Assembly (NCBI GenBank): GCA_965203315.1
Contig: OZ241857.1
Coordinates: 352,001-416,000 of the forward strand
Length of the DNA: 64,000 bases
Direction of reading: 5' to 3'
Origin: Nitrosopumilus sp.
GTDB lineage: Archaea > Thermoproteota > Nitrososphaeria > Nitrososphaerales > Nitrosopumilaceae
Position 1 is the first letter of the stretch. Each line of letters opens with the position of its first letter. Below are positions 11,638 to 59,625 of the stretch, one piece after another. The notes below the pieces were generated by a model. The model was not told the DNA's origin, searched no databases, and worked only from the letters and a program-made list of their open reading frames with translations. A program made the translations under genes and the position numbers.

Positions 11638-11638
11638 A

Positions 11639-15554: not shown

Positions 15555-15558
15555 CTCA

Positions 15559-44006: not shown

Positions 44007-45485
44007 TCAACCCAAAGTTGGATCGACTATCTTGCCCATGAATAGTATCAGCCCAGTGTCATTATCTTGTACAAAGAATATGAATGGGTGATCGGCATAA
44101 AAGTATAGATTTGGTAGAAACTCCATGCCATCGGGTATTATTGTATCTGCTCTAGGTCTTGTATCTGTACCCATCCGATCAAATAAGAAATACACGGGGT
44201 GATACAACTTGTCTATTTGTAATTCATTTGAGTACTGGACAGTTGCATCTGTAAAGTTATTTTTCGAATCAAATACGTCTTTTACTCCCAACTGCTCAAA
44301 TATCCTACCAAGATCATGACTGTTTTTTATCTCGAATTTTGGCACTTCTGTGTACATGTATGTATGTTCTAAATTACTTTTCCATTCTTCAATCTGTTTT
44401 ACAGATATTGTCTCTTCTATCTCTTTTATGCCGACACTAACATTTGGTAGTATTATTGTTATGGATAGATGTTTTTGTTTGTATGGTATGTTTAATACTT
44501 GTACGTTATCATAATGGGCATATTTGTAACCATACCATGCAGGCTGTATCAAAACATCTACTATTACTTCTTCACTACTAGTCCACAAAGTACTTTTTTC
44601 TAAATGAGTTGGTTCAAATTGCCAATCCCAAGCTGATTTAAAATATGCATTACTTATCAACTGTGAAGACGAATTTTCAAAGTCGCTCGGCAAATATATA
44701 TTGATTATTTTTTCTCTTGTGTTTGTACTGATCCATTCGTTTATTTCATCTATGTTTTTGTTGTTAAAGAGTTCAACTGTGTTTGTTTGATCTTTGAATG
44801 TGTTTTGAGTTATATTGATGTATTTGTCTGTGAAGTTGGTATTTTTTGTAAGCCATATACTGTTGATTATATTGATATCTGTCCATTCCTCATGAACTTG
44901 GATTGTGTTAGTATGATAATTTCCATATTTGTCCTTATCGCAGCACTCTTCATAAGAGACAACTCCCATATGCTTCTTGTCGTTGTTTATAATTGACCAT
45001 AACTTTTTTAGTGATTCGTGTCTAGTTTGAGCATCTGGATTAAATCCCAATACCTTTTCTATCTGTTTTGCAGCATCGCCATCTACCCCCTCATACAGTA
45101 TAGAGAATGCCATAATCAGACTGGTTGGTGAGAAAAGGATGTTTTTGTCTTGGTATTTGGTATCGTTGTGGATGGTTTTGTAAAATTTTATGGCAAACTC
45201 GTTGTTTGCAGATACAATATCTTGTAGTTTACTGTCTGATGTATCTATCGACAGCATCTGTGTATTAGAATATGGCAACCATCCGCGTGTAATCAGTACA
45301 TCTCTGGTCTCTGGTGCAACACATGCTAACGTTCCGCTTGGTCGTTGTATATACACCATGTCTGATTTACATGCATTGTCAGCAAATACCATTCTGGGAT
45401 TTATGGGATCAGAGATATCAAGTTCATAGAATGTAGATGCCGATACAGCAAAGATAATAGATATTGTCAGTATGGTGATCTTCAC
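44007..45485 (-). CDS. Secreted serpin-family protein
   Basis: Signal peptide; ANNEFAIKFY, NILFSPTS, INEWIS.NT..KI, NAYFKSAW..QF, FYADHPFIFFV...LILFMGKIVDP. Confidence 0.92.
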   Translation of the reverse strand: MKITILTISIIFAVSASTFYELDISDPINPRMVFADNACKSDMVYIQRPSGTLACVAPETRDVLITRGWLPYSNTQMLSIDTSDSKLQDIVSANNEFAIKFYKTIHNDTKYQDKNILFSPTSLIMAFSILYEGVDGDAAKQIEKVLGFNPDAQTRHESLKKLWSIINNDKKHMGVVSYEECCDKDKYGNYHTNTIQVHEEWTDINIINSIWLTKNTNFTDKYINITQNTFKDQTNTVELFNNKNIDEINEWISTNTREKIINIYLPSDFENSSSQLISNAYFKSAWDWQFEPTHLEKSTLWTSSEEVIVDVLIQPAWYGYKYAHYDNVQVLNIPYKQKHLSITIILPNVSVGIKEIEETISVKQIEEWKSNLEHTYMYTEVPKFEIKNSHDLGRIFEQLGVKDVFDSKNNFTDATVQYSNELQIDKLYHPVYFLFDRMGTDTRPRADTIIPDGMEFLPNLYFYADHPFIFFVQDNDTGLILFMGKIVDPTLG

Positions 45486-46778: not shown

Positions 46779-46997
46779 GAGTCATCTATAGCAAACATTC
46801 ACGTTTTCAGAGTTTTGATCTACTTGTTCTGGAGCATCATCGGTATGGATTTATTTTGTTCTGGATGTCTTGAGTGACATCTAGATGTTTTTCATATCGT
46901 GTGCAACACGTGATCTTTGTTCATAACATCCGATACATATCGTGAGTGTGGCTGTTTTCCTAGTATTTGACATCACATCCTCGTTTTATCTATCCTG

Positions 46998-48520
46998 GGG
47001 GTTGTCCGGTGAATATCTCGTAAAATCTATGCATTTTATGATCTCTTAAACAAAATACAACAAATTAACTCTATTTGCCGTTATTTTTCTATTAAAAGTT
47101 AAACTTTGGTGCAAAGTGTACCGTTTTGCACTTCAATAATCAAGTTTGATTAATTAAAACGCCACAAATTAATGCTCGACAAGCATGCATTTACCAAAAA
47201 ACAGTATTTGGTTACCACTCAATACCCACTTGTGCTAAAATTACTTTTGAATTATGTGCAGCAATCTTGAACTTTAACTCTTGAACCATGTTTTCCCATT
47301 TTATTGCTTTAATGTCTTCTCCAAATAGGAGTTTCATTGTTGAAAATACACCTTCAACATTTGCACGGTCTCCATATCCTAGAATTATCTTCCAATCATC
47401 TTGATTTTCTTCGCGTTCGTCTGTTGGCATGGAATTTAGATCTTTACCATCTAAAGCACCAAATTGAAACTCGGCTAATTTACTTCTGGGATCATCCCCA
47501 TGTGATACTGCATTACGTTTTATCAATATTCCGTTGATGAGATTATACATCATGCAAAACTCGTGAATCTTTTTTGTATCATAACCTTTGTCGGCGAGAA
47601 TTTTCTTTGTGATTGGTTTACCGGTACGATTACATTCATCAACTATCTCTGTTGCATCTTTTAATAGTTGCTTAAACTGTGACGAATCTGATTTCTTGTC
47701 AGTCGTAATGCTGTATGACCTTATAATCTTTGAATTCACGTCTATACAAATGTGCATTTTTACAAATCCATCTCGTTCTACTTTGTAACGGGCTTCAATC
47801 CATCGACCACCTGCATGTTGTCTAAAGCCAGAAGCATCAATAGCTAGAGTATGTGGCATTTTAGACTTTATAATTAAGAGATCGTTTAAAATATCGACTT
47901 CCTGTGCTTTTATTCTAGCGTGTAACTGAGATCTACGTGGTATCTTGAAATTAGGAAAAGATTTCTCTAACTCTTTTATGAGTCGTCTATATGAATAGTT
48001 GTTTCTAGATTTTGTAATACCTGCGTACATTATAAGAGCTTCTGAATAAAGGAATTGTCCACCACGTTTATTTTTATTCATAAGAGTTAACTCTTTTTCG
48101 AATTCTTCTTTAAATTTATCCTCGTCTTCCAATCTTAAAACAAGCATAAAAAATAAAAGTCTTAATCTTGGTTTATGTTTTAATGATTTCATAATTCTAC
48201 TTAAATTTCTTGCTTTCTCACGTTTTTCTTTACGATTCATGTCCTCATCTTTTAGAAACTTGAACCAATAAGGGAAATCACTCGCCATGACATTTCTAAA
48301 AATAGTTCCCCTTTATAGATCTTTTCATTTTGATATCTATTTTGTGTTTTAAAATTAATTGTAAACTAGAACTTGTTACTAATTCTATGCAGCAGTTGAA
48401 AAAACAACACTAGAAACGATGCAATTAGAGAAAATATTTCTCATGTGTTCAAAATCGAGCGATTTGTATCCCCGATGAGTGGATTTGCAGCTGCCCTATT
48501 CCTATTCACCGGACAACCTC
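46998..48520 (-). mobile_element. Complete IS5-family element (1523 bp)
   Basis: 18-bp TIR GGGGTTGTCCGGTGAATA / TATTCACCGGACAACCTC; 8-bp TSD CTATCCTG at 46990-46997 and 48521-48528. Confidence 0.92.
47212..48288 (-). CDS. IS5-family DDE transposase
   Basis: LAIDASGF, KMHICID, ILADKGYDT, Y..RANVEGVFSTMKLLFG. Confidence 0.92.
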   Translation of the reverse strand: MASDFPYWFKFLKDEDMNRKEKREKARNLSRIMKSLKHKPRLRLLFFMLVLRLEDEDKFKEEFEKELTLMNKNKRGGQFLYSEALIMYAGITKSRNNYSYRRLIKELEKSFPNFKIPRRSQLHARIKAQEVDILNDLLIIKSKMPHTLAIDASGFRQHAGGRWIEARYKVERDGFVKMHICIDVNSKIIRSYSITTDKKSDSSQFKQLLKDATEIVDECNRTGKPITKKILADKGYDTKKIHEFCMMYNLINGILIKRNAVSHGDDPRSKLAEFQFGALDGKDLNSMPTDEREENQDDWKIILGYGDRANVEGVFSTMKLLFGEDIKAIKWENMVQELKFKIAAHNSKVILAQVGIEW

Positions 48521-48725
48521 CTATCCTGATGTAGATAAACTAGGTTTGGTTCACACAGGTGTAAAATTGGACAAGAGAGTGATTCTACTCTTGACTGCAA
48601 CATTCAAGACATGTGCTATTACTCGACTTTTTGGAACGTTTGATGAACTGTAAAATTATTACGGAACATATTGTAGTCCATAAACACATAAAGATTCATT
48701 TTACGAGCTGTACGATGATACCGCA

Positions 48726-49685
48726 TTGTACAAAAGTCCACTGTTTGGAATCATACGGAAATACCTGCAGAATGGAACAGATGATCAGACGATTCACATA
48801 TTTGTGCCATACATAAAAACAAACGTACTAGAAAAATTGTTAAAAGATCTGAATAACAATGTGGTTGTGATAACTACATGGAAACCGCGAGATATCTTGC
48901 TTGGTTCATCAGATCTCGATCTGTATCCGTTCTGCAAAGAAAATAAAATTACATTATACATTAACAACAGACTACATCTCAAAGTGTACTCTGTTGGATT
49001 AAATGATGCAATACTTGCCACAGGTAACGTATCGAATAGAGGATTATTGAATAACGGCAATTATGAATCTGCAACACTCGTTCATTTGACTAGCTATGAT
49101 CGACTATTCTTTGAGACTATTAGACATGAATCTAGATTGGTCGATGACGAGATGTATGATCTGCTTGAGACATGGATTAAAGATAACAAGATTGAACCTA
49201 TCGATGACACTCCTATCGAAAGTATTGTGCCGATGTCTAAAAAAGATGACTTTCTTACATCTGCATTGCCAATGACTAGGAGTGTTGATGATCTCATTTA
49301 TGGATACCAAAAGATTGCGTCTGGTGAAGAACCTAGTACTGATTCTGAGACTAGAGCATGTATATTTCATGACTTGGCAAACTATCAGATCACTCAAGGA
49401 TTGAACGAACAAGAATTCAGAGATGAATTATCTGCCAAATTTTTTGCTCATCCATTTATCAAAAAGATCGATGAACTTGTTGATCCAGAAGCTTATTTTG
49501 GACAAATCAAAGAATGGATTCAAGGTAACTGTACCGATGTGCCTGTACCAAGTAGACGTGAATTGACAGGAAATGTTCAAGTGTTGTTAGAATGGTTTGT
49601 AAAACTAGGAAGATCTAGATATGTGATCGATGTGCCGGGAGTTAGATCACAACGTATTCGAAAAATCGACACTACTCATCACTGA
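48726..49685 (+). CDS. Phospholipase D-family (HKD) nuclease-like protein
   Basis: FVPYI, LHLKVY.......ATGNVSNRGL..GNYE (single HxK motif as in PLD nucleases). Confidence 0.8.
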   Translation: MYKSPLFGIIRKYLQNGTDDQTIHIFVPYIKTNVLEKLLKDLNNNVVVITTWKPRDILLGSSDLDLYPFCKENKITLYINNRLHLKVYSVGLNDAILATGNVSNRGLLNNGNYESATLVHLTSYDRLFFETIRHESRLVDDEMYDLLETWIKDNKIEPIDDTPIESIVPMSKKDDFLTSALPMTRSVDDLIYGYQKIASGEEPSTDSETRACIFHDLANYQITQGLNEQEFRDELSAKFFAHPFIKKIDELVDPEAYFGQIKEWIQGNCTDVPVPSRRELTGNVQVLLEWFVKLGRSRYVIDVPGVRSQRIRKIDTTHH

Positions 49686-49721
49686 TATCTTTTTAAACCC
49701 CAGTACAGCTCAACTGGTGAA

Positions 49722-51302
49722 TTGGATATCGAAGATCTCTTACGAAGAGCAAGCTCATCATTAGGCAAATTCTTAACAAAAGAAGCGTTAGAAGTCTTGA
49801 AAACAGATGCAGAAGCATTACGTCCAGAAAACTTGATCAGTCTTATTCTTGATTCGATCTCTCCATACAGTATGCTCAAAGATCAAGATATGCGTAACAT
49901 ACTAATAAAAGCTATGACGCAAAAAGATGCAGAAGAGTTTGCCAAGTTTATTGGGATTTCAGAATGGAATGACATTTACTATAAATTAACACATACGAAA
50001 TTTACAGATAAAACATTAAAAATTGCACTGGAATTTTTTGGTGAAAAATTTGAAGATGACATACAAATGACAAAACCTGATTTTGAGAATATCGCCCCAT
50101 CGAGGCCTCTGTTTGACTATCAAGTGAGTACAATCTACAAAATTCAAAAATTTCTATCCGTGAAACCACACAAAGTTTTACTACACATGCCTACAGGAGC
50201 TGGCAAGACGATCTCAACTATGAGAGTCATACTGAATCACCTATTAGAAAACCCACACAACCTTGTAATCTGGCTTGCTCATAACGAAGAGCTATGTGAA
50301 CAAGCATTTGTCGAATTCCAAAACTCGTGGAAATTTGGAGGAGATAGACCAATTGACACATATAGATTTTTTGGCAAAAGTCAAGTTGACCCATTGAATA
50401 TAACCGATGGGTTTATGGTAGCTGGTCTACAAAAAATGTTGGCGTCTGCAAGAAAGAATAATGAATTTCTAGCAAGAGTCTCTCAAAAAACTACTTTGGT
50501 GGTGATCGACGAAGCTCATCAAGCAATAGCTGAAAAATTCTCTATTGTCATCGAAGAATTAGCAGACAATGAAACAAAATTGTTAGGTCTCAGTGCAACA
50601 CCTGGACGTAAAACTGAAATTGAAGATGAAGAAAATAGAAAATTGGCGAGATTTTTTAATAGTCAAAAGGTAATGTTGGACACAGGCGATGAAAACCCAA
50701 TACATTATTTAACTAGAAATAACTATCTAGCAGAACCAAAATTTAATCAAATCATATATACTGGTGAAGTTTTAACCCCTCAAGATTTAAGCGACATAAA
50801 AAAACATGCAGACATTCCGTACAGAATTTTAGAAAAACTCTCAATTCAAACAAAACGTAATCTCGTCATAATGAGTGAGATCATGCGTCTTGCTAACATA
50901 CACAAAAAGATAATTGTGTTTGCGACATCTGTTAGTCATGCTCAAACAATTTCTCAGATACTAGCAGCTAAAAAATACAAAGCTCACTATCTCACATACA
51001 ATACTCCTTCCAATACAAGAAAGAAGATTTTACACAACTACAAGAACACAGATACACCGATGATCTTGTGTAATTATGGCATACTTACAACCGGTTTTGA
51101 TGCTCCTAGAACATCGGCAATCGTTATAGCGCGTCCTACTAAATCACGTGTTTTGTATGCTCAAATGGTAGGTCGAGGAATACGTGGTGAAAGAGCAGGT
51201 GGAAACAAAAGATGTGAAATCTCAACCGTTAAAGACGAGATCGATGAGTTTATTAATGTAGCAGAAATTTTTATACAATGGGAGTCTGCGTGGAATGACT
51301 GA
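49722..51302 (+). CDS. SF2 DEAH helicase (ResIII-like)
   Basis: LFDYQ, MPTGAGKT, IDEAH, GLSATPGR, LTTGFDAP, QMVGRGIR. Confidence 0.9.
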   Translation: MDIEDLLRRASSSLGKFLTKEALEVLKTDAEALRPENLISLILDSISPYSMLKDQDMRNILIKAMTQKDAEEFAKFIGISEWNDIYYKLTHTKFTDKTLKIALEFFGEKFEDDIQMTKPDFENIAPSRPLFDYQVSTIYKIQKFLSVKPHKVLLHMPTGAGKTISTMRVILNHLLENPHNLVIWLAHNEELCEQAFVEFQNSWKFGGDRPIDTYRFFGKSQVDPLNITDGFMVAGLQKMLASARKNNEFLARVSQKTTLVVIDEAHQAIAEKFSIVIEELADNETKLLGLSATPGRKTEIEDEENRKLARFFNSQKVMLDTGDENPIHYLTRNNYLAEPKFNQIIYTGEVLTPQDLSDIKKHADIPYRILEKLSIQTKRNLVIMSEIMRLANIHKKIIVFATSVSHAQTISQILAAKKYKAHYLTYNTPSNTRKKILHNYKNTDTPMILCNYGILTTGFDAPRTSAIVIARPTKSRVLYAQMVGRGIRGERAGGNKRCEISTVKDEIDEFINVAEIFIQWESAWND

Positions 51303-53094
51303 GAAAGACTATTCTATATTTGCAGGGGATAAATTCATAGAATCAATGCGTAGTAGCGGATATGAAGATACATCATATGCAGTAGCAGAACTAGTGGATA
51401 ATTCCATAGATGCAAATGCGAAACATATTGAGATATTGTGTCAAGATGTCGATGACCCTAGTACGGGCAGATCCATCTTAAAAAAAATAGCTGTGCTAGA
51501 TGATGGTAATGGAATGAACGCATCCCAACTGCGTAGTGCACTTTTATTTGGAGATGGTACACGTGGAGATAATTCTAAAGATATTGGAAAATATGGCATG
51601 GGGTTGCCAAATTCATCCTTATCTCAATGTAAAAGAGTCGAAGTCTACTCGTGGCAAAATGGTTCTAAACCAGTTTATAGTTATATTGATGTTGATGAAG
51701 TAAAACAAGGAAAAAAAGAGATTCCCATACCTGTTGAAAAAAAGATCAATGTTGCATGGATAGAGATGGCGACTCACTTTTCAAGAGAGTCAGGCACACT
51801 AGTGGTGTGGTCTAAACTCGATAGATGTACTTGGGTAACATCAAAGAAGATTATCGAACACTCTGAATTTCACATAGGGCGCATCTATAGAAAGTTTATC
51901 GCTAGTAAAAGAGCCACAATACTCATGACGGCTTCAAAAATAAACGAAAATGATCAAGTTGTTGACGTCAACGCCAAAGAAATGCTTCCAAACGATCCAT
52001 TATATTTAATGGCGCCTACGTCTACACCTGGCAAGTGGGGAAAAATTCCAATGTTTAAGCCAGACGTAACGCCTGAAAAAACCTATACTATAGATTATGC
52101 TGGGAGACCACACATAATAACTGTCAGGTATTCTATTGAGAAGGATGAGCTTAGAGCCCCAGAAAATGTATCTGGTGATCAAGGTAATACACCACATGGA
52201 AAACACGCTCGCAGAAATGTAGGTGTCTCTATTATGCGAGCTGATCGTGAAATAGCATTAGATATGAGCCTGGTTATAGGATCTGATCCTCGGGATCGAT
52301 GGTGGGGTGTTGAAATCGATATACCATCCTCATTAGATCGAGTAGTAGATCTTACAGCAGATAAACAAAAGATGGTTGCGTTGACACAAATAATGAGACT
52401 CATAGGTAGATTTGGTGATGATGACTCGGACAGAGATGATATCTTGTTAGATGTCTCTGAGATGGATCATGCTCGTTCAAAATTATTTTCAATAATCCGC
52501 GACACAAAGGCACACATAAGTTCTATGCAACGACGAATTAGAGCAACACGTGCAGGGACACGCACGAGTGTAAAGGGGTCAAAATTGAAAGCCAAGATCG
52601 ATGGCGGAATAAAGAAAGAAGCAGAAGTGGGCGAAATCGGAGAAAGTGACAAAGATAGAGAAAAGTTAACTAAAGAGGAGCGTATAACTATGCTTATCGA
52701 AGATCAAGTGTCTGACGGAGTCGAAGAAAGTCTAGCTAGAGAACGAGCAGAAAAGATGGTAGAGGAGGACTACAAGATCATCTTTGAAGAGGTAGAGGGA
52801 GAAGGAAGTAGCTTCTTTACTGTTCAAAATATTGGTGGAATACTCAAAGTAAAGATAAATTCCAATCATCGAGCATACAAAAATCTATTGACGTTGACTG
52901 TTTCAGAAAAGAAAGATAGTTTGAACTGTGATGAGCGTCTAGACCTAACTAAAGATGGACTGTGGCTACTGTTGGCATCTTGGGCACGTCTTGAAGATCT
53001 CACAGAGAATCGTGAAAAGAAAAGAAACATACAAAATACTAGATTTGATTGGGGTCGAGAGTTGGATATATTTTTAGAACAAAATGAAAAGTAG
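51295..53094 (+). CDS. MORC-like GHKL ATPase
   Basis: SMRSSGY...AVAELVDNSIDA, DDGNGM, GKYGMGL, SGTLVVW, GRIYRKFI. Confidence 0.88.
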   Translation: MTEKDYSIFAGDKFIESMRSSGYEDTSYAVAELVDNSIDANAKHIEILCQDVDDPSTGRSILKKIAVLDDGNGMNASQLRSALLFGDGTRGDNSKDIGKYGMGLPNSSLSQCKRVEVYSWQNGSKPVYSYIDVDEVKQGKKEIPIPVEKKINVAWIEMATHFSRESGTLVVWSKLDRCTWVTSKKIIEHSEFHIGRIYRKFIASKRATILMTASKINENDQVVDVNAKEMLPNDPLYLMAPTSTPGKWGKIPMFKPDVTPEKTYTIDYAGRPHIITVRYSIEKDELRAPENVSGDQGNTPHGKHARRNVGVSIMRADREIALDMSLVIGSDPRDRWWGVEIDIPSSLDRVVDLTADKQKMVALTQIMRLIGRFGDDDSDRDDILLDVSEMDHARSKLFSIIRDTKAHISSMQRRIRATRAGTRTSVKGSKLKAKIDGGIKKEAEVGEIGESDKDREKLTKEERITMLIEDQVSDGVEESLARERAEKMVEEDYKIIFEEVEGEGSSFFTVQNIGGILKVKINSNHRAYKNLLTLTVSEKKDSLNCDERLDLTKDGLWLLLASWARLEDLTENREKKRNIQNTRFDWGRELDIFLEQNEK

Positions 53095-53124
53095 GTTTAA
53101 AAGCAACTGACCGCAGTTCCGTAT

Positions 53125-54291
53125 ATGCCATATATGGATTACAACTCTACAACACCCATAGACACTCGTGTGTTAGACATAATGAACAAAACATATACTG
53201 AACACTTTGGAAACCCATCGAGTACACACCCGGTAGGAATTGATGCAGATGATCTCTTAAATACAGCACGGGAAAATGTATCGGCACTAGTAAATGCTAA
53301 ATCAAACGACGTGATATTTACTTCAGGAGCTACAGAAGCCAACAATATGGTGATATCATGGATCGGAACAAAGAGTGATAAGCCAAACCGTCTCCTATAT
53401 GGATCCACAGAACACAAGTCAATAATTGAGACTTCCACTTACATGTCCAAAAAATTTGGACTCGAAATAAAACCAATCCCAGTAACAACGGATGGTGTTA
53501 TAGATATAGAAAGATACAAAGAACTCTTGGATGAATCATCTACAGATATCGTATCAGTGATGGCGGCAAATAGTGAGACGGGTGTAATTAATCCAATCAA
53601 AAAAATTGCTCACCTAGCTAAATCTCATGGCGCTATATTTCACTGTGATGCTACACAAGCTGTAGGTAGAATTCCTTTTGATATGAATGATCTAGATATC
53701 GATATTGTCACAATGAGCAGTCATAAAATTTATGGTCCAAAAGGTGTAGGAGCCCTAATTGCAAACAGATCAATCCGAAGGCAGTTGAGTCCTCTGATTC
53801 ATGGCGGAGGTCAAGAAGGAAATCTGCGTAGTGGTACAGAGAATGTTCCAGGCATAGTTGGATTCTCAAAGGCATGTGAGATAGCAATATCTGAAGGATT
53901 AGATGACTCTAAACGACAAGCAGATATGCGTGATAATCTAGAATCCCATTTGATATCATCACTAGATAATGTTACTGTAAATGGTGGTAATGTGGATCGC
54001 ATACCTAACACAACAAACCTAAGAATCGCCGGTGCTCTGGCCGATGCAGTAGTCGTAAACTTGAAAGAGACAGATATCTCAACTGGCAGTGCATGTTCAT
54101 CATCTACAATGGAGCCTTCACATGTACTAATTGCTATGGGTTTAACTAGAGATCAAGCAGATGAATCAATTCGTATATCTGTTGGAAGACCTACAACGCA
54201 ACAAGATGTGTACACGACAATTAGAGATATCATACAATCAGCTACATATGTTAGGCAAAAAGAGACAGAGATCACAGGACGTGTAATATGA
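53125..54291 (+). CDS. sspA: Cysteine desulfurase SspA (IscS-like)
   Basis: YMDYNSTT, FTSGATEANN, HCDATQ, SSHKIYGPKG, STGSACSS; overlaps sspB. Confidence 0.9.
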   Translation: MPYMDYNSTTPIDTRVLDIMNKTYTEHFGNPSSTHPVGIDADDLLNTARENVSALVNAKSNDVIFTSGATEANNMVISWIGTKSDKPNRLLYGSTEHKSIIETSTYMSKKFGLEIKPIPVTTDGVIDIERYKELLDESSTDIVSVMAANSETGVINPIKKIAHLAKSHGAIFHCDATQAVGRIPFDMNDLDIDIVTMSSHKIYGPKGVGALIANRSIRRQLSPLIHGGGQEGNLRSGTENVPGIVGFSKACEIAISEGLDDSKRQADMRDNLESHLISSLDNVTVNGGNVDRIPNTTNLRIAGALADAVVVNLKETDISTGSACSSSTMEPSHVLIAMGLTRDQADESIRISVGRPTTQQDVYTTIRDIIQSATYVRQKETEITGRVI

Positions 54292-55253
54292 TGCTAATTA
54301 CCGAGGCTGTTCCCGCACCATCATTTTCACGACATGAATCATTTCATCTTCGATATGGTTGGCTCAAGAAAGCATATAATCAAGTAATGCAAGATAGTTC
54401 TATATTCAAACGTGATAACGCCCCTATCAAACTTGGTGTAGGAAAAAATATGGTACGCGCCATAAAGTTTTGGGGATTGGCTAGTAAAATATTGGAGATA
54501 GACTCTCAAACAAAGCATGGTCCTGTAATATCTACGTCTCTTGGCCATTACATATTTGCCGATAATGGACTCGATCCATACATCGAGAATCCAAACACGC
54601 TATGGCTTTTGCATTGGCTATTACTTGCTCCTCCGTGTAGACTTCCTGTATGGTGGTTAATCATGAACCGATTTACTGCAACAAACATCAAAGTAAATGA
54701 TCTTATAGACACAGTCACAAATCAGATCACAAACATTAGTGAATGGGCTTCGCCTAGCCCAAATTCTATAAAAAAAGATATTGATGTATTCATCCATACC
54801 TACACTACTAGACGAGATAAGATGTCCATAGAAGAATACTTGGACTGTCCTTTACGCCAAATTCACATACTTAAACAAAATTCTAAAGACGAGATACGCT
54901 TCATCTATGGCGAAAAATATGGATTGTCCCCTTTTGTGGTAGCATTTGCCTGTCTAGACTTTATAGACAGAGCAAACATTCAATCTAAGAGCGTATCTGT
55001 AAGTAAACTTGCGACAGAATATGGTGGTGTTGGGAACACATTCAAGATTACTGAACACGATTTAACAAAAATGTTGTTGGAAACCTCTAATCAAACTAGT
55101 ATTTTGTCAGTACAAAATATTGCGGGTCTGCCACATTTAACATTCAAAAGCACTGCAAAAGAAGCTTCATTAAAAATATTGGCAGAAATGTATGGCAAGA
55201 AGCGATTACCACACATCAAATCTTTATCAGAATTAAAGGTGATTATTCAATGA
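54288..55253 (+). CDS. sspB: SspB (DUF4007 family)
   Basis: FSRHESFHLRYGWLKK, LGVGKNMVRAIKFW, DPYIE...TLWLLHW. Confidence 0.92.
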   Translation: MMLITEAVPAPSFSRHESFHLRYGWLKKAYNQVMQDSSIFKRDNAPIKLGVGKNMVRAIKFWGLASKILEIDSQTKHGPVISTSLGHYIFADNGLDPYIENPNTLWLLHWLLLAPPCRLPVWWLIMNRFTATNIKVNDLIDTVTNQITNISEWASPSPNSIKKDIDVFIHTYTTRRDKMSIEEYLDCPLRQIHILKQNSKDEIRFIYGEKYGLSPFVVAFACLDFIDRANIQSKSVSVSKLATEYGGVGNTFKITEHDLTKMLLETSNQTSILSVQNIAGLPHLTFKSTAKEASLKILAEMYGKKRLPHIKSLSELKVIIQ

Positions 55254-58200
55254 CAACTCTACAAAAGACTAAAAAGAAGACTAAACCACTATCTCGTCTA
55301 GTCACCACCATCCAAAAGCCAAACGCTTCTACAAATGTAGAGCATGATGATATTATCTCTTTAAAACAGTACTTTCCAGGTCCCAGTACACTAGATGTAA
55401 TCAAGCGGTTTGCAAACAGTCTTACTAACTCCAAAAATGGAGTAATGTTATCGATAACTGGTCCTTATGGATCTGGCAAATCCACCATGGCAACATTTCT
55501 AAAAGGATTAACGTCGTCTAGATCTACTACAGAATGGCAGACATCTCACCACATATTGAAGAAGATCGCTCCAGACATAGATAAACTACTTGTAGATGGA
55601 AGAAGACTCACCGAGACTGATGAACGTGGACTATTAACGTGTGCAATATCTGCAAGACGTGAACCACTATCTATAACAATACTTCGTGCTTTACATAAAG
55701 GGGCAGAACAATACTTTGGTAGATATACAAACAAGCATTTTGCAAATGCTGATCTTCTTGTACACGCGATCAATAATTTGGACAAAACACCTCCAAAAAC
55801 CAGCGATATCATAGAGATCATATCTAGTATGTGTCAAGTATCTCCTGTACTGTTATTGATAGATGAGTTTGGGAAGAATATAGAGTATTTTACAGTTGAT
55901 GGGACAGAAAACAGCGATCTGTTTCTTTTGCAACAACTTGCAGAGATGTCTGGTCGCGGAAGAAGAGTACCGTTATCGATCATAACGCTGCAACATATGG
56001 CTTTTGAAGAATACGTGGGTGTATCAATGAATCAAAAACGGGAATGGTCCAAGATTCAAGGCAGATTTGAAGATATACCTTTTGCAAACTCGCCAGATCA
56101 AATACGCCTGCTAATCTCAAAGAGCATACGTATTGACAACTCGATCGCTAGTAACAAAATCATTAAAAGATGGGCAGAACAGCAGTTAAAGAAATTACAA
56201 CATATTGTAAATAATGAGTCTAGTACAGATTTAATTGCAGCTTGTTACCCACTAGATCCATTATCTCTTGAAATTCTTCCTGAACTGTGTACTAGGTACG
56301 GTCAACATGAGCGAACATTATTGTCATTTATCACAAGTGGTGGTAAACACACAGTTGCGACATTTATAGATCAAAATACGTGGGACAATACCGCCAGATT
56401 ACCCACAATGAGTATTGATGTACTCTATGATTATTTCATAAGGGACACTAGTATGATTCATTCTAATTCTAACATAACTAGACTGATGGAGATTGAAACA
56501 ATAATCCGTGACGCACACGGTTTAACCGATCTTGAGACCAAAACACTCAAAGTCATAGGATTAATAAATTTAATTAGCACGTCTGGAAATCTACGTGCGT
56601 CTCAAAGAGTGATCGAGTATGCAATCGGATGTAATCCGAATTTAATCTTGAAGAAACTGGAAAAAAGATCCATCATTACATTTAGAAAACATGCTGATGA
56701 ATATAGGATATGGCGTGGCACAGACATTGATATTGCTGTCAATTTAGAGATACAGAGCAAGCGATATCAAAATACCCCTCTTCTAGAAATATTAAATCAA
56801 ACAATACGTATTGATGCAATAGTAGCTGCCAAACATAATATTGAAACTGGCAGTATGAGGCTCTTTGAGAGACGGTTTGCTGATGGTTCAAACACTGTTC
56901 ATGTCGATGATGCTTATGATGGCGCAATCATTTATAGAATTGCTAACTGTGCAATCCCAAAGGCTAACAAACCAATAATTGTGATCGACGCACAAGATTT
57001 TACTGATCTTCGTGTTGCGAGTATACAAGTTATGGCTATTCAAGATACTTTAAACGATGAGACTGTTGTTAATGATTGGGTAGCTACAAAAGAACTGCGT
57101 GAGAGACTTGCAGATGCTGAGACGAGAATGGATCAAGTGTTTAACAGCACGTACGGCTACGATGCTCGATGGTCATATCTTGGTAAGAATAAAGCAATCG
57201 GAAACGACACACTCAGTTCAATAGTATCCAAAGTTTGTGATGTCGCGTACAATCAAACACCAAAGATTTACAACGAGATGATCAACCGTAATGTAATATC
57301 TAGTCAAGGGATTACAGCTAGGAAAAATCTATTTGACAGAATGCTCACTAGTCCACATAAACATTCTTTTGGTATTGAAGGCTGGGGTCCTGAAAGAGCA
57401 CTTTATGAAGCCATGTTTGCAAAAAAGATTCATGTTGGTAAATTTAACTCAGAGTGGAAGTTACAAGATGTTAACGACGAATCCTTGACGCCTTCTTGGA
57501 ACATGATGCTTGATACAATCAGATCTTCAAAGACGCGCGTATCGATATTTGATATATATGAAAAATGTAAATTACCTCCGTATGGAATCAAAGAAGGAGT
57601 CATACCGTTATTTGTTATTCCTATTCTTTTAATACACAAAGATAACATCGCCGTGTATGAACATGGATCATACGTTCCAAAGATTACTATTGAAGTTATA
57701 GAAAGAATGGTCAAAAACCCTGTTCATTTTGAGGTAAAGTATTTCAAACTGACCCCATCAAAGAAGCAACTAATTCAAACAGTATCAAATGATCTAGGAA
57801 TAAAGACAAATTCAAGTATACTTGGTATTGTGAGTCACATTGTAAGAATAGTCTCTACATTACCCCCGTATGTGATCAAGACGCAGAGGTTGAACAAAAA
57901 CACACTAGCTGTAAAGGGTTCCATCATATCGGCAATAGAGCCAGATGTATTGTTGTTTCATACGCTTCCAAAAGCACTTGGTTTTAAGCCATTTTCTACT
58001 AGCGTCTCGGATAAAGATATTATAAAGTTCTCTAAAACACTCGCAAATTCAGTCAAGACACTGCAAAATGAATTCGACAAGACACTTGACGATGTTATAG
58101 ATATGTTATATGAAACAACGGGCATATACGATCGAGCAAAATTATCAAAGTTAGCCAAAATGATGTTAGATGACGTCACAAACAAAACGATGAAGACTTT

Positions 58201-58588
58201 TCTAAGCGCAATATCTACTGATGCATTGGAGAGTGATTATGATTGGATCAAATACGTTGCATTGAGTCTAACTGACATACCTCCTGCAAACTGGAAAGAC
58301 GAACAGAGATTGATGTTTGAGAACAAGCTTGCAGAAATATCGAGTCAATTTAATAGACTAGCCTCACTACATTTTGCAAATATTGTAGATGCTTTTGAAA
58401 CACCTTATTGCCAAATAACCATCACACATGCAGATGGTAATGAAGAACACAAGATGGTTGCCTTGAATCCTGAGCGAAAGAAGGTTATAGAAAAAGAAGC
58501 AAAGAACATACTTCGATCATTAAAAAAGAAAGGCTTTTCTGTTAAAGATAGAGACGCTTTAGTGGCTATCCTAAGTTCTGAAGACTGA
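55250..58588 (+). CDS. sspC: SspC large P-loop ATPase
   Basis: ITGPYGSGKST, LLIDEFGK, EWSKIQGRF, CYPL.P, GQHERTL.SF, NEMINR, PPYGIKEG. Confidence 0.9.
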   Translation: MTTLQKTKKKTKPLSRLVTTIQKPNASTNVEHDDIISLKQYFPGPSTLDVIKRFANSLTNSKNGVMLSITGPYGSGKSTMATFLKGLTSSRSTTEWQTSHHILKKIAPDIDKLLVDGRRLTETDERGLLTCAISARREPLSITILRALHKGAEQYFGRYTNKHFANADLLVHAINNLDKTPPKTSDIIEIISSMCQVSPVLLLIDEFGKNIEYFTVDGTENSDLFLLQQLAEMSGRGRRVPLSIITLQHMAFEEYVGVSMNQKREWSKIQGRFEDIPFANSPDQIRLLISKSIRIDNSIASNKIIKRWAEQQLKKLQHIVNNESSTDLIAACYPLDPLSLEILPELCTRYGQHERTLLSFITSGGKHTVATFIDQNTWDNTARLPTMSIDVLYDYFIRDTSMIHSNSNITRLMEIETIIRDAHGLTDLETKTLKVIGLINLISTSGNLRASQRVIEYAIGCNPNLILKKLEKRSIITFRKHADEYRIWRGTDIDIAVNLEIQSKRYQNTPLLEILNQTIRIDAIVAAKHNIETGSMRLFERRFADGSNTVHVDDAYDGAIIYRIANCAIPKANKPIIVIDAQDFTDLRVASIQVMAIQDTLNDETVVNDWVATKELRERLADAETRMDQVFNSTYGYDARWSYLGKNKAIGNDTLSSIVSKVCDVAYNQTPKIYNEMINRNVISSQGITARKNLFDRMLTSPHKHSFGIEGWGPERALYEAMFAKKIHVGKFNSEWKLQDVNDESLTPSWNMMLDTIRSSKTRVSIFDIYEKCKLPPYGIKEGVIPLFVIPILLIHKDNIAVYEHGSYVPKITIEVIERMVKNPVHFEVKYFKLTPSKKQLIQTVSNDLGIKTNSSILGIVSHIVRIVSTLPPYVIKTQRLNKNTLAVKGSIISAIEPDVLLFHTLPKALGFKPFSTSVSDKDIIKFSKTLANSVKTLQNEFDKTLDDVIDMLYETTGIYDRAKLSKLAKMMLDDVTNKTMKTFLSAISTDALESDYDWIKYVALSLTDIPPANWKDEQRLMFENKLAEISSQFNRLASLHFANIVDAFETPYCQITITHADGNEEHKMVALNPERKKVIEKEAKNILRSLKKKGFSVKDRDALVAILSSED

Positions 58589-58785
58589 TTCCATAGCGAA
58601 TCAACTATGCAATCTCTTAATTGATAAAGCACTAAAAATTGATGTTGTTAAATCGTTTTACGCATCATTCTATAACGCGGAATTAAAAAGTTACATCTCG
58701 TACTCCATATCCATATCTCTTGCAAAACTATGCTCGATCTAAACTTTTAGAAAATTTTAATAAATAGCAATATGATCTTAGATGT

Positions 58786-59625
58786 GTGGTTAGGCATGTC
58801 TGTGGCATATCTGGAGGTAAAGACTCTAGTGCTCTTGCTGTATATATGAGAGACAAAGTTCCAGACATGGAGTATTTCTTTTGTGATACGGGTGCCGAGT
58901 TGCCAGAGACTTATACATATCTTGCAAAGCTCGAGGTAGTACTAGGTAAAAAGATCGCCAAACTCAATTCAACACGTAGTTTCGATCACTATTTTGAAGT
59001 CTTTCGTGGAACTCTGCCATCGCCACAGATGCGTTGGTGTACAACAATGCTAAAGATAAAGCCACTCGAAGAGTGGATAGGCGAGGATGAAGTAATATCG
59101 TATGTAGCCATACGTGCAGACGAAAAGAACAGGACTGGATATGTGTCTACAAAGCCCAACATAACTACTGTATTTCCATTCATTGAAGACGACATAGATC
59201 ATTCAGGCGTAATCAGGATACTTGAAGATGCTGGAATTAATCTTCCAGAGTACTATGAGTGGCGAACTCGTTCTGGTTGTTACTTTTGTTTCTTTCAGCG
59301 AAAAGCAGAATGGGTAGGTCTAGCAGACAAGCATCCTGATCTCTTTGAACGTGCAGTTGCAATAGAACAAAAGATACTCAAAGATGCAGGTGTTGCAGGA
59401 GATGCAGATTTTAAATCAAGTGGAATGAAAGGTCGTCAGTATACGTGGTCACAAGGAGAGACACTCCCGGAACTCTTGTCTAGAAGAGAAGAGATAATGA
59501 AGAATCATCAAGAGAGCATCAAGAGAGCAAAATCAAAGCGAAAGAATCTACCTCTGATCGAAGTTCTCTCAGATGCTCTAGATGACGATGACGAGTCTAC
59601 ACCGTGTACTATGTGTCATCTGTGA
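58786..59625 (+). CDS. sspD: SspD (PAPS reductase family sulfurtransferase)
   Basis: RHVCGISGGKDSSALA, FCDTGAELPETY, RWCT..LKIKP, YEWRTRSGCYFCFFQ, C-term CxxCHL. Confidence 0.92.
   Translation: MVRHVCGISGGKDSSALAVYMRDKVPDMEYFFCDTGAELPETYTYLAKLEVVLGKKIAKLNSTRSFDHYFEVFRGTLPSPQMRWCTTMLKIKPLEEWIGEDEVISYVAIRADEKNRTGYVSTKPNITTVFPFIEDDIDHSGVIRILEDAGINLPEYYEWRTRSGCYFCFFQRKAEWVGLADKHPDLFERAVAIEQKILKDAGVAGDADFKSSGMKGRQYTWSQGETLPELLSRREEIMKNHQESIKRAKSKRKNLPLIEVLSDALDDDDESTPCTMCHL

Follow-up and report, generated by a model that had tools for sequence, protein, structure and literature searches.

A nuclease, helicase, and MORC-like ATPase trio linked to PT-writer genes beside sspABCD in Nitrosopumilus sp.

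Introduction

SspABCD modules write phosphorothioate (PT), a backbone-sulfur mark, and in published systems these four proteins alone suffice for the modification (PMC8092258, cited throughout from its available sections). Among Ssp partners, SspE has been studied best, and PT activates it instead of blocking it. SspE and SspFGH can coexist with additive effects, and 83.9% of sspBCD clusters contain neither of them; the authors expect further restriction partners (PMC8092258). A stretch of 64,000 nucleotides from the ammonia-oxidizing archaeon Nitrosopumilus sp. (hereafter the window) encodes three extra proteins, a PLD-fold nuclease, a helicase, and a MORC-like ATPase, immediately ahead of an SspABCD module. 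What this trio does beside a PT writer, and whether it represents a known effector, is the question raised by the locus.

Organization of the locus

The locus consists of seven ORFs, all on the plus strand, spanning positions 48726–59625, with spacings of +36, −8, +30, −4, −4, and +197 bp in gene order. The initial annotation described seven co-oriented genes, the first six separated by 36 bp or less or overlapping, and the ORF list and domain calls confirm this layout together with the domain classes that it assigned. The gene for the PLD-fold nuclease subunit (48726–49685; 319 aa, TTG start) lies 36 bp upstream of that for the SF2 DEAH helicase/translocase (49722–51302; 526 aa), whose stop overlaps the start of the MORC-like GHKL ATPase gene (51295–53094; 599 aa) by 8 bp. 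The ATPase gene is followed by sspA after 30 bp, and the trio stands in line with sspABC, while sspD starts 197 bp past sspC, beyond an A+T-rich spacer.

The cysteine desulfurase SspA (53125–54291; 388 aa) matches the PADLOC SspA model at 8.6e-131, compared with 6.9e-128 for the DndA model, and Aminotran_5 at 7.2e-77. SspB (54288–55253; 321 aa) matches its PADLOC model at 5e-90, and DUF4007 (7.1e-83) covers it over profile positions 1–288 of 288. The large BrxC-like ATPase SspC (55250–58588; 1112 aa) matches at 3.5e-288 across positions 3–1104 of 1104, and BrxC at 7.3e-100. SspD (58786–59625; 279 aa), a PAPS-reductase-like sulfur-inserting enzyme, matches at 2.2e-111 across positions 1–276 of 277, and PAPS_reduct at 7.4e-11. 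With four Ssp proteins that each cover nearly the whole PADLOC profile, the locus encodes a complete predicted PT-modification module.

The nuclease subunit

By sequence, the PLD assignment is weak, with PLDc_2 scoring E 0.0061 and 16.8 bits, under the cut-off of 27. The structure of the protein is predicted with a pLDDT of 94.5, and its N-terminal single-HKD nuclease domain (residues 1–150; 48726–49175) is closest in fold to SauUSI (Z 16.0, rmsd 2.1 Å over 140 residues), with further matches to BfiI and Nuc (Z 14.0 each) and the NgoAVII R protein (Z 11.0). Because the model matches SauUSI, BfiI, and Nuc, the fold assignment is clear despite the weak sequence score. Furthermore, the profile of the PLD family matches the SauUSI chain 7clg_A at 6.5e-07, and this profile and the helicase align to successive stretches of one SauUSI chain, residues 109–235 and 242–545.

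The motif in the window protein, HLKVYSVG...TGNVSN, retains His84, Lys86, and Asn101. The family consensus retains the full HxK(x)4D(x)6GSxN, while the Asp is replaced by Gly in the window protein and its closest relatives. The PLD(HKD) label of the initial annotation therefore holds for the fold and the three retained residues, but not for the Asp of HKD. Since SauUSI's own motif is HxK(x)4E (PMC7913695), loss of the Asp need not abolish activity. Invariant or nearly invariant positions are Trp52, His84, Lys86, Asn101, Asn112, Glu114, Pro182, His215, Asp216, Cys269, Pro273, Pro275, Arg277, and Trp290. The entry for this protein in the genome collection comprises 272 aa. The 319-aa ORF is preferred because its 47 additional N-terminal residues align with the relatives, Pro28 being nearly invariant.

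The conserved helical/winged-helix C-terminal domain (residues 171–319; 49236–49682), modeled alone with a pLDDT of 92.2, gives fold matches to N.BspD6I (Z 7.2, 129 aa), FokI (Z 6.1, 130 aa), BrxA (Z 5.9, 126 aa), SspB 6juf (Z 5.4, 139 aa), and BpuJI (Z 5.3, 129 aa), and its last 90 residues to ArsR-type winged helices (Z 5–6.6), all under Z 8 and thus below the tool's level for more than a common arrangement. Foldseek returned no match for the domain at E ≤ 0.001, and profile comparison with SspB gave a probability of 0.2. The modeled domain bears only a weak resemblance to DNA readers of the FokI/BrxA/SspB type (Z 5.4–7.2), and its assignment to the multi-HTH recognition modules of FokI, BpuJI, BrxA, SspB, and DndG, with a tandem HTH/winged-HTH fold, is tentative.

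The helicase and the MORC-like ATPase

The helicase contains ResIII (5e-21), DEAD (5.7e-16), and Helicase_C (1.7e-13) domains, in which the motifs MPTGAGKT, VIDEAH, SATPGR, and QMVGRGIR are readable. No variation is seen in Walker A, DEAH, SAT, or motif VI across 20 sequences, and the N-terminal region of approximately 125 aa is poorly conserved. Among solved chains, the helicase matches RadD (1.8e-21) and SauUSI (1.8e-10, over chain residues 242–545). The NCBIfam RadD model scores 7.4e-38 and 130 bits against a far higher cut-off of 720, and dnd_restrict_1 scores 1.1e-11 and 44 bits against a cut-off of 600.

The ATPase matches HATPase_c_3 at 5.3e-24 and displays the motifs ELVDNSIDA, DDGNGM, and GKYGMG. 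Its closest solved chains by sequence are those of MORC2 (4.2e-07). The invariant residues are Glu32, Asp35, Asn36, Asp69, Gly71, Gly73, Gly98, Gly101, Gly103, Ser312, Arg315, Arg318, and Glu319, the last four of which lie in the segment GVSIMRADREI. This segment, from a putative S5 domain, fits the MORC S5 signature GhXhhpXXRhl (PMC2292703, available sections) except at one hydrophobic position. Both the helicase and the ATPase diverge fast, with 28–60% identity among relatives.

Linkage of the trio to PT writers

Related loci with a full-length PLD gene were drawn from a species-level genome collection; as all 25 were retrieved by one peptide pattern and the genomes are kin, the counts taken from them are not independent samples. 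The helicase gene lies beside the PLD gene in 23/25 loci and the ATPase gene in 21/25, and all three genes occur together in 21/25. A PT writer is found within 10 kb of the PLD gene in 22 of the 25, Ssp in 16 and Dnd in 6, and these 22 span six phyla. The initial annotation had made its reading depend on conservation of the PLD gene with ssp loci, and these neighborhoods show the gene to be conserved with PT loci. In the three loci without a nearby writer, the genome holds SspB or DndB elsewhere. In a sample of 301 genomes from the order, 10 of the 24 that encode SspB or DndB carry the PLD gene, and none of the other 277 does. With 25 additional loci showing the arrangement and a distribution that follows the PT-writer genes, it is far beyond chance; the trio is conserved as a module and did not arise by accident at this one locus.

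The combination was initially taken for an archaeal variant of Ssp, which proves too narrow. The cassette also occurs in Planctomycetota, Bdellovibrionota, Acidobacteriota, Verrucomicrobiota, and Bacteroidota, and in 6/25 loci it adjoins DndBCDA, not Ssp. On the PLD tree, the Dnd label requires four changes, at least three of them forced by well-supported branches. In the Bacteroidota sample, a full-length PLD gene was found in 3/400 genomes, and all three show a helicase–ATPase–PLD arrangement with Ssp genes. Among nine relatives of the same order, PLD occurs with the helicase and ATPase in 8/9 and with Ssp or DndA-like genes in 8/9, with rearranged gene order and orientation. Partial sets persist: one relative (G277, locus L038) carries PLD and SspABC with neither helicase nor ATPase within 10 kb, while another (G286) has the helicase and ATPase and lacks PLD in its whole genome.

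SspD is the most conserved protein of the gene set among thaumarchaeal relatives (median identity 85%, n=10). PLD follows with a median of 60%, and the others reach 36–49%. The sspD gene of many relatives is separated from sspABC and directly abuts the helicase or ATPase gene.

Comparison with SspE and SspFGH

As the initial annotation stated, the locus has no SspE: of 13 proteins encoded in and around the locus, not one is of the DUF262/DUF1524 type (Pfam, PADLOC), and none of the three extra proteins matches SspE (PADLOC). The only GmrSD_N match of the genome lies approximately 1.4 Mb away on the same contig, with Orf5 as its best PADLOC model (5.5e-125); SspE models cover its N-terminus only (1.5e-15). 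The further proposal that the trio stands "instead of SspE" is true locally, as the window carries no DUF262 gene, but not for the relatives, at least six of which carry a DUF262+DUF1524 gene in the same island as the trio or parts of it. This coexistence suggests that the trio is a second effector and not a simple replacement.

For SspFGH, the available sections of PMC8092258 report a Walker A motif in SspF and an FtsK/SpoIIIE-like similarity at the SspH end and nothing more, and the words "helicase" and "PLD" are absent from the text of the paper. The proposal in the initial annotation that SspFGH includes helicase and ATPase components, with two genes of the trio as possible homologs, is not borne out by this description. 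No match under the name SspF, SspG, or SspH came up for the trio proteins in PADLOC at E ≤ 0.01, nor for two of them when the threshold was raised to E ≤ 10. Full-length correspondence of all three to SspF, SspG, and SspH, the case in which the locus was to be read as a known system, was thus found neither by PADLOC nor in the description. Judged by this description, the trio, composed of PLD, SF2, and GHKL proteins, is not SspFGH. The likeness to SspABCD–SspE/SspFGH (PMC8092258) lies in the same PT writer, served by exchangeable or stackable effector modules, and the difference lies in the effector genes, which are unrelated to the trio, and in the pairing of the trio with Dnd writers as well.

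Comparison with other nuclease–motor systems

SauUSI provides the best fold match of the nuclease domain, and since each of its chains likewise contributes a single HKD-type motif, the active site requires a dimer. SauUSI is modification-dependent, and its ATPase is switched on by recognition of the mark (PMC7913695). It unites nuclease, motor, and SRA domain in a single chain and stands alone against methylated DNA. In the window, in contrast, nuclease and motor are encoded by two genes, no SRA domain was found in the trio (Pfam, structural matches), a MORC-like ATPase is added, and the set is tied to a PT writer. The two-gene split resembles the R2H2 enzymes CglI and NgoAVII, in which R combines a PLD nuclease with a B3 DNA reader and H is an SF2 motor (PMC7913695). 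The trio differs in that the C-terminal domain is helical/winged-helix instead of B3, the helicase is RadD/Rad25-like with no Z1 domain recognized, the mark is PT instead of methylation, and a MORC-like subunit is present.

DndCDEA–PbeABCD likewise contains a PT-associated pair of HKD nuclease and SF2 helicase. The echo of PbeA that had been suggested is upheld for the helicase, whose best PADLOC model is PbeA (3.5e-25), with the match at profile positions 232–617 of 672 confined to the helicase part. In PbeA, the HKD nuclease is fused to the helicase (PMC10853773, available sections), whereas the window encodes them separately, with a C-terminal domain of its own on the PLD protein, which does not match the PbeA model even at E ≤ 10. 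PbeC (a CxC ABC ATPase), the DndE-like PbeD, and the small PbeB are absent among the seven genes; PbeC/DndD models match only the separate Dnd module at 4403–6439. The trio includes a GHKL ATPase, which the text of the PbeABCD paper never mentions (PMC10853773).

The MORC restriction-like operons of Iyer, Abhiman and Aravind (2008), predicted restriction systems that combine a MORC-type GHKL ATPase with an adjacent Rad25-like SF2 helicase and a nuclease, in some instances an HKD one (PMC2292703, available sections), share these features with the trio, in which GHKL motifs, the signature of a putative S5 domain, and an adjacent SF2 helicase and nuclease are recognizable. In those operons, the HKD domain is fused to the helicase and DNA methylases are frequent but not universal companions (PMC2292703). 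In the window, the HKD-class nuclease is a separate gene, no methyltransferase domain was found in the locus (Pfam, PADLOC), and modification is instead the task of a PT writer. PMC2292703 contains none of the words phosphorothio, DndB, and PAPS. A literature search found no description of a PLD–helicase–MORC trio with PT writers, and the trio appears undescribed as a partner of DNA-sulfur systems.

Two further candidates were rejected. DISARM, whose DrmC had been named as a parallel, shares the PLD fold and nothing beyond it, with weak DrmC matches only (E 0.0011 and 0.0033) and with DrmA and DrmB (DUF1998) unmatched in the locus. For the MZA system, the MzaB models cover only residues 14–223 of the ATPase, at 2.2e-15 in PADLOC and at 77.9 bits in NCBIfam, where the cut-off is 850.

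A possible PT-based restriction-modification system

The genomic linkage of the trio to PT writers is tight and independent of the writer; the activity of the trio, its assembly into a complex, and the direction in which PT acts on it are predictions. On balance, we favor the explanation that the locus is a PT-based restriction-modification system, with SspABCD as the writer, the upstream trio as a split ATP-driven restriction arm, and PT as the self mark. The trio would be a multi-subunit version of the PLD and SF2-motor enzymes of the SauUSI, PbeA, and CglI/NgoAVII type, with a MORC-type ATPase added. His84, Lys86, and Asn101 of PLD and all ATP motifs of the helicase and GHKL proteins are retained. 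The PLD subunit may dimerize through its single-HKD domains and form one active site, like SauUSI and BfiI, and its C-terminal helix-turn-helix/winged-helix module may keep it on the DNA. The DEAH helicase, fueled by ATP, would drive the complex along duplex DNA, and the MORC-like ATPase could give the license to cut, as a dimeric clamp or switch gated by ATP. Sulfur in the backbone of self DNA would halt or prevent the attack, such that non-PT DNA is cut. Because Ssp and Dnd writers are both accompanied by the trio, what it detects is probably the sulfur mark itself, or what the mark does to translocation or cleavage, and not the sequence motif of one writer. Against this explanation, PT is present at only a minority of sites, and simple protection of every site is therefore impossible. 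Further points against it are the Gly in place of the HKD Asp, the low Z values behind the reading of the C-terminal domain as a DNA reader, the partial sets in G277 and G286, and the IS element ahead of the PLD gene.

The behavior of SspE (PMC8092258) speaks against a PT-blocked enzyme and for the opposite polarity, in which the trio is switched on by host PT, then nicks or degrades incoming DNA, and is inert without a writer. SauUSI, which is structurally closest to the nuclease and is also related to the helicase, shows modification dependence as well (PMC7913695), and the co-occurrence with writers (10/24 versus 0/277) fits PT dependence as well as PT protection. A sulfur-binding or SRA-like reader domain, however, was not recognized in the three proteins. 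The DUF262-DUF1524 gene beside the trio in at least six islands also argues against this polarity, as effectors of the same logic would add less than complementary ones, although SspE and SspFGH do coexist and add up (PMC8092258). We consider PT activation unlikely, though the most probable of the alternatives.

The position of sspD against the helicase or ATPase gene in many relatives, and the highest conservation of SspD and PLD, would suit an altogether different role, in which the trio aids PT modification or upkeep through, for example, site search, strand opening for marks on a single strand, or removal and repair of PT sites that are damaged, and does not restrict invaders. This seems improbable, as SspABCD needs no such help and most sspBCD clusters lack these neighbors (PMC8092258), and as the PLD gene is absent from 3/11 genomes with SspB in the sample of the order. 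A restriction-class PLD nuclease with a translocase is, moreover, the standard make-up of a restriction arm, and the helicase and ATPase diverge fast, in the manner of conflict genes. More improbable still is that the trio is complete in itself, as a restriction system of the MORC type or type IV, and lies near PT genes only through clustering in defence islands. Defence genes are dense in the window, and MORC–helicase operons without PT genes exist (PMC2292703), but the PLD gene is missing from all 277 sampled genomes of the order that lack SspB and DndB, it adjoins a writer in most related loci and in all three Bacteroidota genomes, the gene spacing is operon-like, and no methyltransferase accompanies the trio in the window.

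If PT restriction is the function, a bolder and rather doubtful extension is that the trio is a universal checker of backbone sulfur, for which PT itself is the self mark regardless of writer (single-strand Ssp or double-strand Dnd) and motif, with the MORC-like clamp as the mark-sensitive switch. No prokaryotic MORC before this ATPase would then have been linked to a defined epigenetic mark, and in function it would foreshadow the MORCs of eukaryotes with their role in epigenetic silencing. For part of the approximately 84% of sspBCD clusters without a known effector, the trio would constitute the main restriction partner that is still missing.

Surroundings of the locus

The host is an archaeon, in keeping with the ribosomal proteins S4e and L24P/L26-type encoded in the window and with Nitrosopumilus and Cenarchaeum as the named relatives. 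The 64-kb island further contains a Dnd module, an AbiE pair, genes for Mrr_N proteins and for an AAA_21 protein, an IS element, and an integrase-like gene. The IS element precedes the PLD gene by 205 bp, and the native promoter of this gene may have been removed by it.

Gene composition of the locus and its setting

The locus at 48726-59625 (+) consists of seven co-oriented genes, located where the initial annotation had placed them, with spacings of +36, -8, +30, -4, -4 and +197 bp. The first three genes, hereafter the trio, encode a PLD-fold nuclease, an SF2 DEAH helicase and a MORC-like GHKL ATPase. The last four constitute a complete Ssp writer, the gene set for phosphorothioate (PT) marking, as judged from PADLOC and Pfam profile matches. 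SspA is matched by PADLOC at 8.6e-131, with the DndA model nearly equal (6.9e-128), and SspB by both DUF4007 (7.1e-83) and PADLOC (5e-90). The PADLOC match of SspC covers the whole profile (3.5e-288), and that of SspD reaches 2.2e-111. The host belongs to the ammonia-oxidising archaea, in the Nitrosopumilus/Cenarchaeum group; the window encodes archaeal ribosomal proteins, and the genome around it comprises 2.47 Mb in 7 contigs. Among public sequencing runs, four DNA runs from two studies carry most of the stretch, and no RNA run is listed.

The G+C content of the locus (0.35-0.40) does not contrast with that of the surrounding sequence. The window contains no tRNA gene as a border of an integrated element, and no direct repeats bracket the locus; the single 20-nt pair found is taken as chance. 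An IS element at 46997-48521 ends 205 bp before the start of the PLD gene. It carries a DDE_Tnp_1 transposase gene at 47212-48288 (-) (2.8e-15) and inverted repeats of 19 nt, 95% complementary, at 46997-47015 and 48503-48521. This IS may have replaced the original upstream region of the operon.

Linkage of the trio to PT writers

Among 301 genomes of the order, the PLD protein is present in 10, including the window's genome. These represent 10 of the 24 genomes with SspB or DndB, as compared with 0 of the 277 with neither. The carriers are confined to one family (9 of 73 genomes without the window's own; none in 19 other families). The PLD gene has the helicase and ATPase as neighbours in eight of the nine same-order relatives, and Ssp or DndA-like genes likewise in eight; the cases that depart from this are a contig of 11.8 kb and a locus lacking both helicase and ATPase. 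The nine differ widely in gene order and orientation. Three SspB-bearing genomes of the order have no PLD match. In G217, SspA-B-C, a DUF262 gene, SspD, the helicase and the ATPase follow one another as far as the contig end. The locus of G286 (L053) is decayed: IS66-type and DDE_Tnp_4 transposase genes come between SspC-B-A and ATPase-helicase, SspD is missing from the 20-kb stretch, and the one-contig genome has no PLD-family match anywhere. The third, G042, has a different gene set, from which the trio is absent.

A species-level scan, seeded with a single peptide pattern from a 10-row alignment, returned 26 loci, of which 25 were counted after a 56-residue fragment (L045) had been dropped. 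The helicase occurs in 23 and the ATPase in 21 of these 25 loci, which overlap with the nine relatives, include two on one chromosome and two with identical PLD proteins, and are therefore kin rather than independent samples. The misses fall at contig or locus ends, on a 5.4-kb contig and at L038. Ssp genes lie within 10 kb of the PLD gene in 16 loci; a PLD gene not conserved with ssp loci, which the initial annotation had named as a refutation, is thus not what this neighbourhood survey shows. Dnd genes lie within the same distance in 6 loci; five are PADLOC-confirmed as DndB/C/D/A, and the sixth (L033) was assigned only from a DndA-like match and a layout in common with L032. The remaining three loci have no writer in reach, and their genomes have SspB or DndB elsewhere, in one case SspB about 7 kb beyond the locus edge, beside helicase and ATPase genes. 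On one Nitrosopumilus chromosome there are two separate trio and Ssp loci (L020 and L026); at the latter the helicase gene (11244-13977) is in two pieces about 1 kb apart, matching query residues 3-292 and 258-526, as though by insertion.

Outside the Thaumarchaeota, carriers include a Woesearchaeota MAG and MAGs labelled Planctomycetes, Pyrinomonadaceae, Bdellovibrionales (two), Verrucomicrobia and Poribacteria. The contig labelled Candidatus Poribacteria (L028) carries the trio with SspABCD. Its PLD and SspD are 62% and 81% identical to the window's, a closeness like that of thaumarchaeal proteins, and its PLD nests among the thaumarchaeal ones on the tree. Either gene transfer between co-inhabitants of one habitat or a binning error would account for this. 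In Bacteroidota, a full-length PLD member was found in 3 of 400 genomes sampled around a genome having a PLD fragment only. By local profile search, all three show helicase-ATPase-PLD and Ssp genes within 15-20 kb. Two of the Bacteroidota loci have 0.9-1.6 kb unassigned between ATPase and PLD (L051, 8553-9472; L052, 2194-3838), which leaves room for a small extra gene.

In a maximum-likelihood tree of 26 PLD proteins, the Dnd-linked members appear in four places; the Dnd label requires 4 changes, and well-supported branches force at least 3 of them. Helicase and ATPase subtypes are not sorted by writer either, and the thaumarchaeal Dnd-linked loci have the same low-identity "ATPase then helicase" form as several Ssp-linked loci. 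The linkage of the trio to PT writers is thus tight and independent of writer type. Median identities to the window's proteins across the thaumarchaeal loci are 85% for SspD, 60% for PLD, 49% for SspC, 45% for SspA, 44% for SspB, 37% for the ATPase and 36% for the helicase. SspD and PLD, the two chemical catalysts, change little; the ATPases and SspB, which reads DNA, diverge, as would be expected if these determine specificity or have viral counter-measures to face.

A PLD-family nuclease with a probable DNA-binding domain

The 319-aa PLD protein matches PLDc_2 below threshold in the sequence profile search (E 0.0061), and its alignment-based model reaches a pLDDT of 94.5 and a pTM of 0.79. 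Residues 1-150 form a PLD-family nuclease domain. Its best structural match is SauUSI (Z 16.0, rmsd 2.1 Å over 140 residues), which is also the top Foldseek match of the model (5.6e-06), followed by BfiI and Nuc (both Z 14.0), NucT (Z 13.5) and the NgoAVII R protein (Z 11.0). H84 does not vary among the 49 rows of an alignment, in which K86, N101, N112 and E114 are almost invariant. The consensus of the family has HxK(x)4D(x)6GSxN in full, but Gly replaces the Asp in the window's protein and its nearest relatives. Since SauUSI has Glu at this position of the HKD motif (PMC7913695), the Gly is not taken as inactivation. Each chain contains one HKD motif, so that an active site would need a dimer, as in Nuc, BfiI and SauUSI; by this analogy the nuclease would be expected to act as a dimer.

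A second domain, strongly conserved, spans residues 171-319 and has the motifs LPxxxSP, HD and NCxDVPxPxRR. In the 49-row alignment P182 and D216 are invariant, and H215, C269, P273, P275, R277 and W290 are nearly invariant. By sequence, this domain has no relative among solved chains (best E 2.7) and no Pfam family; VMAP-M12 is matched weakly in 12 of 18 members, with a best E of 0.0078 that lies well under the cut-off. A profile comparison with SspB (hhalign) gave a probability of 0.2. Modelled alone, the domain reaches a pLDDT of 92.2, and Foldseek with this model returned nothing at E ≤ 0.001. Seven structural matches align at least 120 residues, of which five come from restriction and defence proteins and are multi-helix-turn-helix modules for DNA recognition: N.BspD6I (Z 7.2), FokI (6.1), BrxA (5.9), SspB (5.4) and BpuJI (5.3). 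The remaining pair comprises 3bhw, an uncharacterised protein (Z 6.6), and 3c18, which is nucleotidyltransferase-like (Z 5.1). Over its last 90 residues the domain resembles ArsR-type winged helices (Z 5-6.6). Passages of two papers, one of them PMC10853773, put FokI, BpuJI, BrxA, SspB and DndG in one structural class. Since all Z scores are below 8, Foldseek gave no match and the SspB profile comparison was negative, the domain is not filed as a member of this class. Its modelled fold indicates that it is probably a DNA-binding module of the multi-helix-turn-helix kind.

In an exhaustive search the PLD family numbers 1152 cluster representatives when E ≤ 0.001 is required, and 143 at E ≤ 1e-30. 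Its members are mostly about 320 aa long and align across both domains. In the Protein Atlas, queried with a Cenarchaeum homolog of the window's PLD, the clusters nearest to the query are mostly bacterial. Among 21 longer members (P0123, P0127, P0263 and 18 others; 400-655 aa), none contains helicase sequence in a Rosetta-stone test for fusion. Their extra C-terminal parts show at most weak Mrr_N (E 0.0025), EVE (23.3 bits, at the cut-off) and Peptidase_S24 (2.6e-10) matches, and may be reader or regulator domains appended to the nuclease subunit.

The helicase and the MORC-like ATPase

The 526-aa helicase belongs to SF2 (ResIII 5e-21, DEAD 5.7e-16, Helicase_C 1.7e-13) and contains Walker A, DEAH, SAT and motif VI. 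Its top model in the defence library is PbeA, matched in the helicase part alone (3.5e-25; profile 232-617 of 672). The top NCBIfam model, RadD, scores 130 bits, far under its cut-off of 720, and TIGR04095, a restriction model associated with Dnd whose cut-off is 600, reaches 44 bits. Among solved chains the helicase matches RadD (1.8e-21) and residues 242-545 of SauUSI (1.8e-10), and the PLD profile matches SauUSI residues 109-235 (6.5e-07). Since the two proteins match consecutive segments of SauUSI, their genes correspond to the N-terminal two-thirds of a SauUSI-type enzyme, split.

The 599-aa ATPase is of the GHKL type (HATPase_c_3 5.3e-24) and keeps every GHKL ATP-binding motif. Among solved structures, human MORC2 and MORC3 are nearest to it in sequence. 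The stretch GVSIMRADREI fits most of the MORC S5 signature (PMC2292703), and the matching residues are invariant in 20 sequences. MzaB models match the N-terminal domain and nothing further, and the last ~200 residues have no match to any family.

Comparison with known systems and SspE-like genes

The initial annotation had considered that trio genes might be Ssp effector homologs. PADLOC scoring, together with the account of SspFGH in parts of PMC8092258, speaks against both SspFGH and SspE. PbeABCD membership was rejected, PbeA being matched only in part and PbeC and PbeD being absent. The defence-model scan ruled out DISARM, and MZA was ruled out as well, the MzaB models being limited to one domain of the ATPase. 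Among the listed solved-structure matches of the three trio proteins there is no recognisable Tdp entry.

Operons of MORC and Rad25-like helicase genes, occasionally with an HKD nuclease, were predicted as restriction systems in 2008 (PMC2292703). Those operons were described with methylases and PT is nowhere mentioned, whereas the partner of the window's trio is a PT writer. A 2024 Dnd reappraisal describes HKD and SF2 fusions beside Dnd genes, and MORC, GHKL, HATPase, Hsp90, MutL and gyrase are all absent from its text (PMC10853773). The trio is not described in main-text passages of a 2026 BREX survey (PMC12839542) and of a gut-microbiome PT paper, and the table of PT-based systems in a December 2025 review contains Dnd-FGH/Pbe, Tdp, SspE and SspFGH only. 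In a literature search covering mostly open-access main texts, none linked a GHKL/MORC ATPase, an HKD nuclease and PT; supplementary neighbourhood tables may list such cases. The sole match that brings PT and GHKL/MORC together in a defence context concerns unrelated Vibrio systems. All domain families of the locus are known, and we found no description in print of an effector module assembled from these parts.

The trio had also been proposed to stand in place of SspE. The window's locus indeed has no DUF262/DUF1524 gene, the architecture of SspE, but such a gene coexists with the trio or parts of it in at least six relatives, so that replacement does not hold as a general rule. In the window's genome, the sole DUF262/DUF1524 gene lies about 1.4 Mb away and best fits the PADLOC model "Orf5". 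In the relatives, these genes often sit between sspC and sspD, as at L054 (14627-16519; GmrSD_N 1.2e-32, GmrSD_C 3.9e-21). They lie within Ssp and trio islands at L022 (14662-16545), L020 (15409-17190) and L031 (6702-8699), and within islands at L038 (397-2154) and L034 (~7359-9182, with one in-frame stop). For five of them (L034 left out), the best PADLOC models are HEC-06 and Orf5. Since SspE models match in part only, the genes have SspE architecture and are not filed as SspE. Their coexistence with the trio parallels that of SspE and SspFGH in published systems, as described in passages of PMC8092258.

Proposed mode of action

Our favoured reading, held with modest confidence, is that the locus encodes PT-based restriction-modification and that three subunits make up the enzyme of its restriction arm. 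The PLD nuclease, acting as a dimer and carrying a DNA-binding module of its own, would resemble the R subunit of CglI/NgoAVII. The SF2 translocase would correspond to the H subunit of the same enzymes, or to the motor of SauUSI and PbeA, and the MORC-type ATPase could serve as an ATP-gated clamp or switch. Self DNA would be spared if backbone sulfur blocks loading, translocation or phosphodiester attack. Such PT-blocked logic is the same as that proposed for DndFGH and SspFGH, which, according to passages of PMC8092258, damage PT-free DNA and for which PT protection of self has been proposed. We infer the direction of PT dependence, the assembly of the trio and the role of each subunit.

The main rival reverses this direction: the trio would be a PT-activated enzyme after the pattern of SspE and SauUSI, the latter being the closest structural match of the nuclease domain. 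We regard this as rather unlikely. That the trio is a helper of the PT writer appears improbable, and a mere island neighbour of PT genes, which would have to be set beside the linkage to two writer types, more improbable still.

If the trio is the restriction arm of a PT system, it bears on a wider gap. PT systems occur in roughly a tenth of prokaryotes, according to the gut-microbiome PT paper, and 83.9% of sspBCD clusters lack a known restriction partner (PMC8092258). The trio follows Ssp and Dnd writers across archaea and at least five bacterial phyla, and is a strong candidate for a missing PT restriction partner. Ammonia-oxidising archaea, which are hard to study genetically, gain a defined candidate antiviral system, and with bacterial orthologs in Bacteroidota, Planctomycetota and Bdellovibrionota the hypothesis can be tested in standard laboratory hosts. 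The trio also offers a tractable setting to ask what prokaryotic MORC ATPases do, with one of them coupled to a specific, chemically mappable DNA mark.

A second PT writer and other genes in the window

The genome has both writers: at a distance of 40 kb from the Ssp locus, the segment 2885-8997 (-) encodes a DndB-C-D-A module. PADLOC identifies DndA (2885-4036, -; 3e-156), DndD (4403-6439, -; 8.1e-178), DndC (6436-7929, -; 8.8e-181, with a C-terminal Sp-DndD match) and DndB (7930-8997, -; 1.8e-124). A five-gene (+) block adjoins the module and encodes an SNF2-type helicase (BrxHI/DrmD-like, 1.6e-75), a ParB_N protein (2.6e-09) and three familyless ORFs. It is flanked by genes for two large Mrr_N-domain proteins at 10-2376 and 15559-17658, the latter also with an HNH_repeat match. 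The block and the Mrr_N genes together span 9886-17658 and 10-2376, and the block may be an additional restriction module.

On the 3' side of sspD, the segment 60064-63843 (-) contains a 545-aa ORF whose Phage_integrase match is weak (E 0.00027, under the cut-off), a familyless ORF of 153 aa and an AAA_21 ATPase (PADLOC HEC-01A 2.3e-21, also AbiLi/AriA-like). The defence island probably extends past sspD into this segment. An AbiEii/AbiEi toxin-antitoxin pair is located at 25127-26697 (-) (AbiEii 6.7e-32, AbiEi_1 9.7e-10). Published work ties sponge-associated relatives to rich defence and mobile-element content. The window also encodes a serpin at 44007-45485 (-) (3.8e-74) and a 1196-aa subtilase-domain protein at 17921-21511 (-) (1.3e-34), which are unusual cargo in a free-living ammonia oxidiser.
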